From positions 187,798 through 251,797 of the forward strand of contig JBJBCN010000002.1 in assembly GCA_047285805.1 (NCBI GenBank): a stretch of DNA of 64,000 nt, in the 5' to 3' direction. The stretch comes from Synechococcus sp. Lineage in GTDB: Bacteria > Cyanobacteriota > Cyanobacteriia > PCC-6307 > Cyanobiaceae. Below, one piece after another: positions 2,804 through 27,831 of this stretch. The notes beneath the pieces are model-generated. The model ran no database searches. It worked only from the letters and a program-made list of their open reading frames with translations, and was not told the origin of the DNA. The first letter of the stretch is position 1. Every line of letters starts with the position of its first letter. Position numbers and translations under genes: made by a program.

Positions 2804-3787
2804 TCAGCTGTCGCCGCGGTACCCGAGTTCCGCGAGCCGCGATGAGCTGCGGCGCCAGTTGGGAACGACCTTGACGAAGAGCTCCAGGTATACCGGGCCG
2901 GAGATCAGCTTCTGCATCTGTTGGCGAGCGCCCGTGCCGATCTGGCGAAGCATCCGTCCGCCTTTGCCGATCAGGATTCCTTTCTGACTGGTGCGCTCCA
3001 CGAGCACGGTGGCAAGGACCGCGGTGCGCTCCTTGTCATCGACGATCCGCTCGATTTGCACGGCGACTGAGTGGGGGATCTCTTCGCGGGTGTGCTGGAG
3101 GACCTGCTCGCGAATCAGCTCCGCCAGCAGCAGCTGCTCCGGTTGGTCGCTGACCGCATCGGGGGGGTAGAGGTGCGGCCCCTCCGGCAGCTCAGCCGCC
3201 AGGGCATTGACGAGCGCATCGGTGCCATCGCCATTGAGGGCGCTGACGGGGTGGAGGGGCCAACTAGGTACGAGTTCGCGGTAGCTGGTCTCCAGCTCGG
3301 CGGCCTGGTCGGGATCCACGAGATCGCATTTGTTTAGGGCGACCTGGACTGGCACTTTGGTGCGCTCGAGCAGCTCGACGATGAAGCCATCCCCGCGGCC
3401 GGCGGCCTGGCTGCCATCCACAAGCAGCAGCACCTGATCGACTTCACCGATCGCGCCACGGGCGGTCTGTACGAGCCGCTCCCCCAGCAGGTGATGGGGC
3501 TTGTGGATCCCGGGGGTGTCCACGAGCACCAGCTGGGCCGTGGGCGTGGTGAGGATCGCCCGCAGCCGGTTGCGGGTGGTTTGGGCCACCGGGGAGGTGA
3601 TTGCCACCTTCTCGCCGACCAATTGATTCATCAGGGTGGACTTGCCCACGTTGGGCCGTCCCACTAGGGCGACAAAGCCTGAACGAAAGCCTTCGGGGCT
3701 CTGCCCCAGGGTGAAGCCACCGGCTACGGCCTTGGCCGGCAGATCGCTGAGATCTGGGAAAGGCAGCAACTGGTCGTGTGACTCCAT
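2804..3787 (-). CDS. era: GTPase Era
   Basis: GRPNVGKS, QTTR, DTPG, NKCD, KH domain (REEIPHSVAV, GILIGKGG); start uncertain (ATG 3787 or TTG 3808). Confidence 0.97.
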   Translation of the reverse strand: MESHDQLLPFPDLSDLPAKAVAGGFTLGQSPEGFRSGFVALVGRPNVGKSTLMNQLVGEKVAITSPVAQTTRNRLRAILTTPTAQLVLVDTPGIHKPHHLLGERLVQTARGAIGEVDQVLLLVDGSQAAGRGDGFIVELLERTKVPVQVALNKCDLVDPDQAAELETSYRELVPSWPLHPVSALNGDGTDALVNALAAELPEGPHLYPPDAVSDQPEQLLLAELIREQVLQHTREEIPHSVAVQIERIVDDKERTAVLATVLVERTSQKGILIGKGGRMLRQIGTGARQQMQKLISGPVYLELFVKVVPNWRRSSSRLAELGYRGDS

Positions 3788-3905
3788 AGTCTCAACAAAT
3801 GTGTTCAAGCGTTGCTATTACTGAGATCACAGGCGTGCACTGACCTCTGGACAGACACTAAGCACAGACATTTGACCTCTTTCACGCATCGTTCCACTCA
3901 ACTCC

Positions 3906-5054
3906 ATGGCCCGGCCTGTCTCTGGTCCAAGACGCATCGACAACAGCGGTACGTGGTTCGCCGTGAAGATCATTGGCGGCCGCAAATTCATGAAGTCCCT
4001 CGGGACGAAGAACAAGGTTGAGGCACTGAGGCGCTGGCCCGCTGCTCTCGAAGATCTCGAGCGTCGAGCAAACCCTGAGAAGCCAAGACCTACTGATGTC
4101 CTGGACGTCAGCCACCTCGATCCGACCACTGGGAAGCAGTGGGAGGAGCGGGAACGTGCCATCGACTTGCTCCCTGCCTCAGCCATCGACTGGTCCGAGA
4201 ATGAGGAAGACGACGGAAAGATCTCATGGACCGAGGCGGCAACCATCGCGGAGCAGCGTTGGAAGCGAAAGAACGGAGGGGAGGGCTACAGCCGCACGTG
4301 GTGGGAGGCGACACGTCGTGCCATCACCTTCTGCCCAGTGGGACCGGAGGAGCTTCAGCCTCGGCATATCCGCCAGATGATCATCGAGATGGAGGCCGCC
4401 GGCATGAGGCCTCAGTCCGCCTCTCAACGATGCAGCTGCCTCTCTAGTCTGCTAACTGCACTCATCAAGTCCGGTGCTGCTGACCACCTGACCAACCCAT
4501 TCAGCAAGGTCGATTACTCGGTCAAGAGCAGGATCCATTACAGAACCCCATCAACTCAGGAGTACAAGGCGGTGTGGCAAAGGAGGCACGAGATGCCCGA
4601 AGGCTGCGCTGAGGTGCTCGAGATCCTGATCTTCAGTGGTGCTCGCATCGAAGAGGTGCTGCAAGCGAGGTACAGCGATGGGTGGATGACCATGGAGAAG
4701 ACCCCTGATTGGTCACCGAAGAACGCAACCTCCTATCGACGACTGCCATTGCCTGAGGGCATGGCCCTCTCTCGTTTCAGCACGCCAAGCGCTCAGGTGT
4801 TCAGGAAGAAGATGAAGCGGATTGCCCCAGCAGTGGAGGAAGCGGCGTCCATGCCGCTTACTCCGCATTGCTTCAGGCACGGATGGAGAACAGCAGCCCG
4901 GATGGGTGGAGCTGACGATTACCTCAGCGAACGACTGCTGGGTCACCGGGCAGGGTTAGCCATGTCGATGACGTACGGCGAGTACCCGGATGAGCTGCTG
5001 CAGCGAGAGGCCGAGAAGGTCTGGGCTGTGCTGCGTCAGTGGCTCGACAGCTGA
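3906..5054 (+). CDS. Tyrosine recombinase/integrase
   Basis: Full catalytic set: SGARIEE (R), PKN (K), HCFRH (HxxR), LGH (H), MTYG (Y); N-terminal KSLGTKN..EA arm-binding-like motif. Confidence 0.92.
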   Translation: MARPVSGPRRIDNSGTWFAVKIIGGRKFMKSLGTKNKVEALRRWPAALEDLERRANPEKPRPTDVLDVSHLDPTTGKQWEERERAIDLLPASAIDWSENEEDDGKISWTEAATIAEQRWKRKNGGEGYSRTWWEATRRAITFCPVGPEELQPRHIRQMIIEMEAAGMRPQSASQRCSCLSSLLTALIKSGAADHLTNPFSKVDYSVKSRIHYRTPSTQEYKAVWQRRHEMPEGCAEVLEILIFSGARIEEVLQARYSDGWMTMEKTPDWSPKNATSYRRLPLPEGMALSRFSTPSAQVFRKKMKRIAPAVEEAASMPLTPHCFRHGWRTAARMGGADDYLSERLLGHRAGLAMSMTYGEYPDELLQREAEKVWAVLRQWLDS

Positions 5055-5230
5055 ATCGAGCAACAGTCGATTTGGCTGTCGGGGGTAAATCTCCTCAACA
5101 GTTGATTTAGTTGCCCCATCAATCCTTTGTTGTGAAAGGTCAACACGCCTCGAGTAAATCGTCAGGACACACAAGTTGACAAACTCAGAATCTGAAGCAA
5201 ATCAGCAGGAGCTTTTTGCTCTCGCTGAGA

Positions 5231-6445
5231 TTAAGTATTTGCTCCTGCCGATTTCAACTTCTTAAGCACCTGCATGCAGGTCCATTTCAGTGGTACCCAC
5301 TGCGCCTTTGTCGCGAGTTGCTCCAGCAGCCCTGCTTGATCATCCAGGCCCATTGCAAGGCAGCCCCAGGCAGCGGCAATCCTGGATTTGGTGTACTGAG
5401 GAATAGTTTCAGCCAGTGCCAGCCGCACCAGTTCGCTTCTAGTTTCAATCCTTTGAAGGCTGACCACGGCAGTGAGGTAGTAGTGCGTGACGTAATCACT
5501 CCATAACTTGTCTTTGATTCGGTCAATCAGGACGAGTTTCTCCTCTTCTTCCATCGACATCAGGCTTGCAGCGCCACCGTATTGACGTGCTTCATCCCTG
5601 TGTTGAAGATTGTTTTCGATTTCATCGGCGTTAACGTCACAGACCCATTCCGTTCTCAGCTTTAAATTTTGTGGATTGTCCTGCAGTAATTGAGTGATCA
5701 ATCCTTCGTACTCTTGAGGGACAACACAGGTTTTCCCTGGATCAACCAGTTGAAAGGCACTTCTCGCTCGTAGGGACATTGAGACCGGAGCCGTCGCTAG
5801 TGACTCGAGTCGACTGACGTCCCCTGCATCGCCAAGATCAATGACTGCAGAACGGCGTCGACCCGCGATTGGGTCCACCAGTTGGGGAACCAAGGTATCT
5901 AAGGCTGTTGTCCTGCCATGAACCTTTGAGCCATAGGCTCTGGCTGCTCCCGACACCAGTGGATTTGGGTCTTCGTCAAAGGGCTTGATGGCATGGTCTG
6001 CGCCTTCAATTCCAAGCCGGGTATGAGCTTGGATCACGGCGCGTTTTTGGATGTCCTCTCCTCCCAGGGCCTGAAGTAGCTGATTTTGCTGCTCGGTATC
6101 CAGCTCGGAGCTGATTTTTGTGATCGAGTCCACTGCGTTGATCACAGCTGATTCATCGCTGCAGCTCAATGCTGCAAACAGAACAGGCAGTGCTTTGGGG
6201 TTGCGCCGCCGTCCCAAGGCGTCTAGGGCTTTTCTTATCGTAATCCGATCAAACAGGTTGTCAGGACTGAGTTGCGCGGCTTCGATCAGTGTGTTCAGGG
6301 ACTCTTCGCTGTCACTGGCACCTAGCCTCGTTGCTGCCATGTACTTATCAACTGGTCGCTCCAGCGAGTCCGGGGCAGCCAGAATGATGCTGATCGCACG
6401 TTCCTCAGTAAGGCCTTCTACAAGATTGTCAAAACGTTCAGGCAT
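5231..6445 (-). CDS. mpeZ: Phycoerythrin-II bilin lyase-isomerase, MpeZ-like (E/F clan, MpeQWYZ family)
   Basis: [81 protein letters not shown] match my recollection of MpeZ; Y318-V319-T320 by my count. Confidence 0.82.
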
Positions 6446-6529
6446 TGATGAGCCTTTTGATTAATAGTTCCAATTAGCGATTGACTCGCCAGAGGTCAAA
6501 ATCTTGGGTCGACGCGGGCTGAGATTTGC

Positions 6530-6599
6530 GCCAAGAGCCGTTGGCTGACCTTATAGCCAGATATTATCATGCCATTGCTGTGCCAAGAGGTCTTGGCTG
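6530..6599. promoter_or_regulatory. Two GCCAA-N6-TTGGC palindromes upstream of the mpeZ-like gene
   Basis: gccaagagccgttggctg (6530-6547) and gccaagaggtcttggctg (6582-6599), 52 bp apart, flanking AT-rich -10-like sequence on the minus strand. Confidence 0.4.
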
Positions 6600-7247
6600 C
6601 CGCAGTCAGTAGTCTTCATCCTTGTTTCTGTATGTCTCTGATTGTTTTTTTATTAATCATTTGAGCTTTAGATGTTATGAGGGGGTATTAGTCCAGGTAT
6701 GTCCCCCTGCTTTGCCAAGAAGAGGGGGTGGGGTACTTCGTTTTTCTTGGGGAGGGGGCACCCCTCATGGTTCGACCTGCTCCGAAACGCAAGTCGGGGT
6801 TGCAATGTGGCGAAATCCTGGCCAATCCAGTGGTATCACTCGGTTCCGACTACTAACCGAATCTGGTTGACGTCCAAGAGTTTTTTATGCATACGGTCAG
6901 TGACCGAGGATGAGAACCATTCGCCTCGCTCGCGTTCTTAATGCCTGCGCGGCTGCGCGCGTCTTTCTTTGGTTGTCTGTTGCGCACAAATTTATACCTA
7001 GGTAGAACACTGAATATATTGCAGGAGGCCTCTGTAAGGGTCCGCAAGGGGCCTCTCGGCTTCCCTGGCGTTGGCCTGCCGTCCAACGACTACAAGCCCT
7101 TCCAGGCGTTTTTGGGCAGACCTAGTCACAGGTGCCATCTCTTGTCACTGCAGACACTAAGCGCATAAGCCCTTGCTGAGAACCCGCATCAGCACTGAAG
7201 TTCTGTGACTAGACTTGCAAGCTAACCTTGGCAGTCCAACCTCCCCC

Positions 7248-7775
7248 ATGACTGAAGCCGCCCCGCTGGAGCCCACGTTTCAACAGGCGATGGAGATCAC
7301 GGCCCAGTGGCTGGCGCTCTGGGAAAACGGCGAACTCAGCGATGAGGTGATCGGCGATCGGGTTTCCGAGTTGGTGGCCAGTCGTGATGGAGCCCGGGGG
7401 TTCTTTGTGGTGTCCTTGGCTGGGGATTGTCCGTTGATGGATCGCCTGCCGGATCCGGTCGTCTTTGCCCTGCGCCAGGCCGGCGACGGGGTGGTGGACC
7501 TCAGTGCTCGCAACCTGGCCATGAGCACGGCGATGGCGCTGCACCACGAGCGCAACGCCGATGCAGTTCAGCAGGCGGGATCGGAGCGGGTTCAATCCCG
7601 CTGCACCGAACTCCTGCGGCTCATGGAGCAGGAAGCAGTGAAAGGGCGACTGGAAACCCTGCTGGAGGCCACCGAGGGCCGGGGTGAGGACGTGGCCTTC
7701 CTGAAACGCTGGGGCTACGACGCCGGTCAGACCGCTGCAATTGCTGAGGCGGTGTTGGCCGTGGCCCAAGGCTGA
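7248..7775 (+). CDS. Conserved cyanobacterial hypothetical protein
   Basis: Host-like codon usage; V..RDGARGFFV and L.V.NLAMSTAM motifs. Confidence 0.75.
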   Translation: MTEAAPLEPTFQQAMEITAQWLALWENGELSDEVIGDRVSELVASRDGARGFFVVSLAGDCPLMDRLPDPVVFALRQAGDGVVDLSARNLAMSTAMALHHERNADAVQQAGSERVQSRCTELLRLMEQEAVKGRLETLLEATEGRGEDVAFLKRWGYDAGQTAAIAEAVLAVAQG

Positions 7776-27747: not shown

Positions 27748-27831
27748 GGGACCATGGCGGAATTGGTAGACGCAGCGGACTTAAAATCCGCAGACGGCAA
27801 CGTTGTGAGGGTTCAAGTCCCTCTGGTCCCA
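27748..27831 (+). tRNA. trnL: tRNA-Leu (anticodon TAA), intronless
   Basis: Acceptor gggacca/tggtccc+a, D arm ggcggaattggtagacgc, anticodon arm gcgga-ctTAAaa-tccgc, long variable arm, T loop gttcaag. Confidence 0.95.

Follow-up and report, generated by a model that had tools for sequence, protein, structure and literature searches.

Pigment type sets the light-colour niche of marine Synechococcus, and pigment types do not track the species tree, a pattern that published work ascribes to allele exchange inside the phycobilisome rod region, to incomplete sorting of lineages and to insertions of the tycheposon type at tRNA-Phe. In the CA4-B form of type IV chromatic acclimation (CA4) a dual-enzyme scheme operates, in which MpeW competes in green light (PMC10904595). 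MpeQ and MpeZ target the same site, Cys83 of MpeA (phycoerythrin II's alpha subunit, alpha-PEII), to which they add phycourobilin (PUB) (PMC10904595). In mechanistic terms, Tyr318 has been assigned to bilin activation, a steric clash caused by Val319 forces the isomerisation of phycoerythrobilin (PEB) to PUB, and Gly319 marks the plain lyase MpeW (PMC9705338). According to section 15 of PMC8995045 and to PMC10904595, the CA4-B island always sits midway within the rod region and has no known means of moving; Grebert et al. 2022 (PMC8995045) mention tyrosine recombinases solely at the end of rod regions where tRNA-Phe lies. The subject of this work is a cassette composed of a tyrosine recombinase (integrase) gene and an mpeQ gene, located beside era (which codes for the GTPase Era) in a stretch of 64,000 nucleotides of a Synechococcus sp. 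genome (assembly GCA_047285805.1; 2.37 Mb, 61% GC, 3 contigs). This stretch, called the window, corresponds to positions 187798-251797 of contig JBJBCN010000002.1 (C2). The cassette was probably acquired horizontally, as a phage-type tyrosine recombinase plus mpeQ that replaces the resident mpeY gene and, together with a second module integrated at a tRNA-Ser gene, completes the CA4-B system.

An earlier note, made from the letters of the window, had described an intact tyrosine integrase and one convergent cargo gene between era and the next conserved gene, and both hold (through a PHROG match and a complete catalytic set for the former and an E/F-type lyase for the latter). The presence of an insertion was also borne out, although its limits moved from 3827-7212 to the slightly wider ones of Table 1. 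The two flanks were joined and searched in 40 related genomes. In the sister species (G023, a single contig of 2.42 Mb) the joined flanks give a contiguous match of 90% identity, and they are contiguous in 8 more genus members at 76-78% identity; era and the gene of the UCP020893 family are adjacent in about 15 genus members other than G023, 30-50 bp apart and with nothing between them, which provides the empty site that the earlier note had proposed to look for in close relatives. At base level this site reads ...CTCCATAGCCTCA directly followed by CCTTGGCAG...ATG, in a divergent intergenic region of 30-50 bp whose core, CTCCATAACCTCACCTTGGCAG, is conserved across the genus. The sequences that border the insertion are ...CATAGTCTCA on one side and CCTTGGCAG... 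on the other; its left limit lies 7 nt upstream of the era ATG and its right limit 22 nt upstream of the ATG of the UCP020893 gene, with a junction duplication of 1-3 nt at most by comparison with the empty site. The segment is a true insertion with an empty site in relatives. No relatives of positions 3795-5144 and 6712-7225 were found in any collection searched, and the genome itself holds no second copy of the insert and no homolog of its right-end DNA. No tRNA gene borders the cassette, the sole one in the window being a tRNA-Leu at 27748. Fourteen public contigs (from GCA_047285245.1 and two SRA assemblies) carry an identical integrase in the same era-integrase-lyase-UCP order, and are 99.97-99.99% identical to the window.

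Table 1. Features of the cassette and its borders (positions in the window).
Feature	Position	Strand	Description
era (GTPase Era), left flank	2804..3787	-	NF000908 at 1e-108; 327 aa in the annotation of GCA_047285245.1; 97% aa identity to G023
Whole insertion	3795..7225		3431 bp, 54% GC
Left bipartite direct repeat TCACAGG-N18-CAGACACTAAGC	3827..3863	+	candidate integrase arm-type site; motif scan
Tyrosine recombinase	3906..5054	+	382 aa, intact, rare phage-type family; phrog_1 1.2e-27, residues 12-378
Segment copied from a 3dB-type phycobilisome rod region	5145..6711	-	mpeQ + 266 nt upstream + about 86-104 nt downstream
mpeQ	5231..6445	-	404 aa, convergent to the integrase; predicted PEB lyase-isomerase, PUB at Cys83 of MpeA
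Twin palindromes GCCAA-N6-TTGGC, 52 bp apart	6527..6599 (6530-6545, 6582-6597)		in the captured mpeQ upstream region
Right-end non-coding DNA	6712..7225		contains the right bipartite repeat, the inverted pair and the promoter-like site
Promoter-like site	6991-7020	+	could now drive the UCP020893 gene
Inverted pair CTAGTCACAG / CTGTGACTAG, right end	7122-7131, 7203-7212		repeat search
Right bipartite direct repeat TCACAGG-N18-CAGACACTAAGC	7126-7162	same orientation as left copy	motif scan
Conserved UCP020893-family gene, right flank	7248..7775	+	PF27721 in the annotation of an identical locus; 97% aa identity to G023

The cargo gene, which the earlier note took for an MpeZ-like lyase-isomerase, codes for a protein that matches the crystallised MpeQ (PDB 7MC4) over residues 1-397 (E 3.5e-189; full-length identity 73%) and that is also recognised by HEAT_2 and by the CpeY-family NCBIfam model, as an E/F-type bilin lyase. 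Its nearest relatives (94% identity) are found in metagenome contigs and in the complete genome of Synechococcus sp. MIT S9452, where they are located immediately upstream of mpeBA, with fciA-fciB-mpeW-unk10 in the same rod regions. In a maximum-likelihood tree (IQ-TREE), which had no verified MpeZ reference sequence among its members, the cargo falls inside an MpeQ clade of 10 Val319 sequences that includes 7MC4 (support 100/98), as sister to the mpeQ genes of MIT S9452 and of a metagenome locus, L006 (support 95/91), and it is only 40-45% identical to the island-type lyases. It carries the motif SDY318-V319-THY, the corresponding motif being SDYG in MpeW, MpeY, CpeY and the mpeY pseudogene described below. 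The match to 7MC4, the relatives upstream of mpeBA and the placement in the MpeQ clade speak against an identity as mpeZ, which was rejected; by these comparisons the cargo is mpeQ, predicted to attach PEB to Cys83 of alpha-PEII and to isomerise it to the blue-absorbing PUB. What it lacks is the canonical MpeQ position, since it lies at era on C2 and not upstream of mpeBA (on a second contig, C3), a departure that concerns the position only and not the protein. Its stop codon has changed, adding 6 residues (404 instead of the usual 398 aa), and its ratio of nonsynonymous to synonymous substitutions (dN/dS) relative to the MIT S9452 gene is 0.10.

The homology to rod regions extends beyond the gene. 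In blastn searches, positions 5145-6711 align over 1568 nt with metagenome locus L006 (7735-9301) at 91.5% identity, and with MIT S9452 (locus L057, 5734-7301) at 91.1%; the homology ends sharply at 5145 and 6711, with unrelated DNA on either side. That the region could be the eroded edge of a full CA4 island, which the earlier note had named as an outcome that would overturn its reading, can be set aside, given the clean 30-bp site in relatives and a rod homology limited to mpeQ and its flanks. The proximal 100 nt upstream of mpeQ are almost identical to those of the canonical loci, and L006 and MIT S9452 keep both palindromes upstream of their canonical mpeQ; the pair probably belongs natively to the mpeQ promoter, as cis-elements. 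The motif GCCAA-N6-TTGGC has 13 copies genome-wide (about 3 expected); it was considered as a mark of a CA4 regulon and rejected, none of the 13 copies being located in the CA4-B island or the rod region. Judging from these alignments, mpeQ was copied with its own promoter region from a 3dB-type rod region of an MIT S9452-like Synechococcus.

The genome's own rod region is located on contig C3, at about 113-137 kb, and its mpeBA genes are intact. The mpeY-type gene upstream of mpeBA (C3:126400-127650, minus strand) is a pseudogene: several frameshifts and no fewer than 5 in-frame stops interrupt it, it is only 38% identical at the amino acid level to the intact MpeY of G023, and it still reads SDYGVHY, with Gly at position 319. 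MpeA keeps Cys75, Cys83 and Cys140, so the substrate cysteine is present. MpeA and MpeB are 93% identical to those of G023 and 83-85% to those of 3dB types, indicating that the rod region is native and that only mpeQ is foreign. G023 contains an intact mpeY and no other Mpe lyase, and among the 31 genus genomes sampled lyases of the phycoerythrin-II type are present only in these two. No other intact gene of the MpeY/MpeQ class is present in the genome under study; because mpeY is dead and no other enzyme of this class is left, the mpeQ of the cassette is considered its functional replacement. The earlier note had proposed to look for fciAB, mpeBA and mpeY in the rest of the genome: fciAB and an intact mpeBA are there, and mpeY only as this pseudogene.

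The only fciA/fciB island of the genome is carried by a second element. At C2:1,255,609-1,266,072, a 10.5-kb integrative element of 35-46% GC is inserted at tRNA-Ser(CGA), bounded by 13-bp direct repeats (AACGGAGAGGGTG) that correspond to the 3' end of tRNA-Ser, and it codes for a P4-type integrase (Arm-DNA-bind_3 + Phage_integrase) and contains two AlpA genes. Its cargo comprises fciA, fciB and unk10, together with a lyase of 397 aa encoded on the other strand. This is the layout of CA4-B, in which the lyase has the opposite orientation and unk10 lies downstream (Humily et al. 2013, PMC3877281). FciA, FciB, the lyase (MpeW) and Unk10 show 79-91% amino acid identity to the CA4-B island of MU1650. 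The lyase contains Gly319, and its relatives (79-83%) lie between unk10/cpeZ and fciB/fciA/mpeU inside rod regions. At the DNA level, a homology of 77-88% begins in a 3' fragment of mpeU, which is frameshifted, and reaches the end of unk10; the lyase is accordingly identified as mpeW and the block as one lifted from a rod region. An mpeZ in a CA4-A island, which would be outside the rod region, was also considered for this lyase; the CA4-B layout, the rod-region relatives and the mpeU piece rule it out. The tRNA-Ser site is empty in G023 (contiguous, 91% identity); as the sister species lacks an insertion at either target site, the direction of events is clear. The observation of the earlier note that no fciA, fciB, fciC or unk10 adjoins the cassette is correct; the independence from regulators that it deduced does not hold, since fciA, fciB, mpeW and unk10 are present on this second element. 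A second Nif11/unk10-like gene, 45% identical to the Unk10 of MU1650, is located at C2:781676-782011 and belongs to neither the CA4-B island nor the rod region.

According to the proposed mechanism, the integrase would insert the cassette as one piece at era, using the bipartite repeats of its ends as binding sites. MpeQ, expressed from the captured promoter, would by default put PUB on Cys83 of MpeA and, in green light, FciA and FciB would induce MpeW, which would compete with it and place PEB at this cysteine, as in CA4-B strains. The two modules would in this way rebuild the MpeQ/MpeW dual-enzyme circuit on an otherwise native rod region that originally used mpeY, the donors being MIT S9452-like for mpeQ and MU1650-like for fciA-fciB-mpeW-unk10, and the cell would be expected to show chromatic acclimation or a raised PUB:PEB ratio. 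Of the earlier proposal that the cassette moves PUB attachment on phycoerythrin II, the predicted activity stands, MpeQ acting as MpeZ does; the free-standing switch does not, with mpeY a pseudogene and the dual-enzyme system complete.

The integrase open reading frame (ORF) is free of frameshifts and stops, and an alignment with 17 homologs shows a conserved catalytic set (R247, K272, H321-x-x-R324, H347 and Y357); its match to the Pfam family Phage_integrase (PF00589) is weak (20.4 bits, with a cut-off of 27.1). Homologs are scarce: 5.8e9 proteins yielded only 4, of about 40% identity, and a set of 1.84e9 yielded 139 cluster representatives. The 4 homologs lie on metagenome contigs of 2-3 kb, amid small phage-like ORFs, and none of these short contigs shows a lyase or era beside them; among these homologs, the linkage to mpeZ or other cargo at era that the earlier note had suggested searching for was not seen. 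The family is unrelated to that of the P4-type integrase of the tRNA-Ser element. Integrases of the lambda-like and Tn916-like types have arm-type binding sites. In the cassette, the bipartite motif TCACAGG-N18-CAGACACTAAGC occurs once near each end, 32 and 63 nt inside the limits of the insertion, these being exactly the only 2 occurrences in the 2.37-Mb genome, and the two copies match at 12/12 and 7/7 positions. Together with the inverted pair of the right end, these repeats are candidate integrase-binding sites. About 780 nt between the lyase and the UCP020893 gene contain no credible gene: the right-end ORFs have no Pfam or PHROG match, and a 75-aa ORF at 6941-7168, annotated in the public record and considered as a gene or an excisionase, has no family match and an implausible sequence, and is probably neither. 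Profile searches of the ORFs of the cassette with Pfam and PHROG revealed no excisionase-like gene. From the sequence features, insertion of the cassette by its own integrase is most likely, and its mobility as a unit is plausible.

The insertion also affects its neighbours. Of the original DNA upstream of era only 7 nt remain (3788-3794), and the end of the Shine-Dalgarno region has been altered from AAGGTGAGG to TTGTTGAGA; before the UCP020893 gene, which is followed by BI-1 and phoH, 22 nt of original DNA are kept (7226-7247). Since both genes have been severed from their former upstream DNA, they must now use signals or promoters inside the ends of the element. With regard to composition, the GC content is 60% in the integrase, 52.5% in the lyase and about 65% in host genes, and at third codon positions (GC3) it is 0.71, 0.53 and 0.76-0.90, respectively; the 40-50% GC that the earlier note gave for the cargo is found only in the non-coding parts and not in the genes. 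Low GC was set aside as proof of a foreign origin: the native phycobilisome genes of this genome are also low in GC, the rod genes equally so, which makes composition alone weak evidence.

Several other observations were made around these loci. In a more distant species, a different 3.2-kb insertion occupies the same era/UCP intergenic region (L040, G007:C4, 3660-6790) and, without an integrase, codes for a 914-aa protein with an Ig-like (SCAB-Ig/AIR9) domain, which suggests that the site tolerates or attracts insertions. Between trmD and era the window contains a gene for a 154-aa bilin lyase-like protein of the CpeS family (PF09367; 2327-2794, minus strand), in conserved DNA of the host, a long way from the rod region. 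Contig C1 (6832 bp, 44.8% GC), which is small and low in GC, codes for proteins of TPR/glycosyltransferase-like types and for parts of large, repeat-rich surface proteins (adhesin); it was considered as an excised element, but it is probably neither this nor a plasmid and instead a fragment, left out of the assembly, of a genomic island for the cell surface.

Two alternatives concern the function of the cargo. The one closest to the earlier note, that an MpeZ-type gene from a CA4-A island moves blue-light PUB attachment free of the CA4 regulators, is highly improbable: MpeQ has the same predicted activity and target site as MpeZ (PMC10904595) and no regulators are adjacent in the window, but the cargo belongs to the MpeQ clade, its closest relatives lie upstream of mpeBA and not in CA4-A islands, and fciA, fciB and mpeW are found elsewhere in the genome. 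It is also improbable, if slightly less so, that the copy is silent or redundant, with mpeQ unexpressed or inactive and Cys83 served by another lyase or left partly without chromophore. The lengthening of the C-terminus by 6 residues through the changed stop codon would be in line with such a loss, but a dN/dS of 0.10, a native promoter region nearly identical to that of canonical loci, the retention of Y318/V319 and of the full length, and the lack of any other intact MpeY/MpeQ-class gene argue for a working enzyme.

The remaining alternatives concern how the cassette arrived and whether it still moves. A tentative extension of the acquired-cassette reading, given somewhat less than an even chance, is that two independent elements moved the whole of CA4-B in, that mpeY then decayed, and that the era cassette is a still-active single-gene 'pigment part' with a 20-bp genus-wide site. 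It is equally conceivable, again at a little below even chances, that the cassette arrived only once, by site-specific, homologous or illegitimate recombination, and is now an immobile relic, the integrase intact but idle and era and the UCP020893 gene dependent on the promoters of the element. Several findings weigh against a mobile cassette acquired as one piece, and part of them would suit such a relic: among the public copies, which are near-identical, the cassette is restricted to one lineage and one site; no identical attachment (att) core was found at both junctions, where no more than 1-3 nt can be shared; and in metagenome contigs the bipartite end motif has 4 chance matches, with no homology beyond the motif, while viral contigs give none. 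In addition, the mpeY relic is heavily decayed, yet the cargo is 91% identical to its nearest donor, which leaves the order of events uncertain, and the mismatch in GC3 between integrase and mpeQ indicates that they may have joined in two steps. The absence of an excisionase-like gene, the separation of both flanking genes from their former upstream DNA and the condition of mpeQ as the sole enzyme of its class, so that excision would be selected against, also speak for a fixed relic, but the full catalytic set of an integrase without frameshift or stop and the preservation of the end repeats speak against it. The composition mismatch leads to a further scenario, in which an integrase-only element settled at era first and mpeQ was captured later by illegitimate recombination. 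Although the sharp bounds of the mpeQ homology block and the 4 integrase homologs amid small phage-like ORFs, never beside a lyase, agree with it, this sequence of events is rather unlikely, as an integrase-only intermediate is absent from the 31 genus genomes and from 5.8e9 proteins; moreover, a mosaic origin would still be compatible with the present unit moving as one piece.

If the extended reading, of two independent elements that moved the whole of CA4-B in, is true, this genome would give the first direct evidence for separate travel of the constitutive and regulated halves of CA4-B on mobile elements, and no CA4-B island would have been found outside the rod region before. The prediction is that two small mobile modules turned a green-light-type antenna into a blue-shifted or acclimating one. 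In a search of open-access papers and preprints, no mpeQ away from the rod region, no dead mpeY with a complementing gene in trans and no CA4-B island within a tRNA-Ser element was found reported, nor anything newer on mobile CA4-B islands. This genome is a concrete counter-example to the notion that CA4-B is always in the rod region, with a fragment of mpeU left over from its former home, and it indicates that genes for light colour can be transferred singly from one lineage to another and exchanged there. Cultures or high-coverage assemblies of the isolates appear to exist, and the cassette could serve as a tool to move single antenna genes.

Among the described systems, the closest to the cargo is MpeQ from marine Synechococcus of types 3c/3dB (A15-62, PDB 7MC4; PMC9705338 and PMC8995045, citing Grebert et al. 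2021 and Kumarapperuma et al. 2022), with which it shares the clade, Tyr318/Val319, the upstream region and 73% identity, and whose partners MpeW and FciA/FciB are likewise encoded in the genome of the cassette; it differs in that it stands alone beside an integrase at era, is 6 residues longer and belongs to a genome with a dead mpeY in the rod slot. Like the CA4-A and CA4-B islands (Humily et al. 2013, PMC3877281), the cassette is a small, horizontally moving unit that would change the chromophore at Cys83 of MpeA, and variable genome positions are known for the CA4-A island; unlike these islands the cassette carries no regulators, only the constitutive partner gene, and unlike the published CA4-B islands the one of this genome is located in a tRNA-Ser element, outside the rod region. 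The insertions of the tycheposon type found where rod regions end at tRNA-Phe (Grebert et al. 2022, PMC8995045, citing Hackl et al.) also combine a tyrosine recombinase with niche-adaptive (light-colour) cargo within a few kb; the cassette has no border tRNA and occupies a 30-bp divergent intergenic site, whereas the tRNA-Ser element has tycheposon hallmarks. Finally, natural variants of CA4, among them BIOS-E4-1 (with mpeZ but without fciAB) and contig C100 (CA4-B without mpeW), also show uncoupled parts of a dual-enzyme system, with an altered PUB:PEB phenotype; those cases have arisen by loss, whereas here the parts would have been gained separately on two modules, with the resident gene lost afterwards or in parallel.

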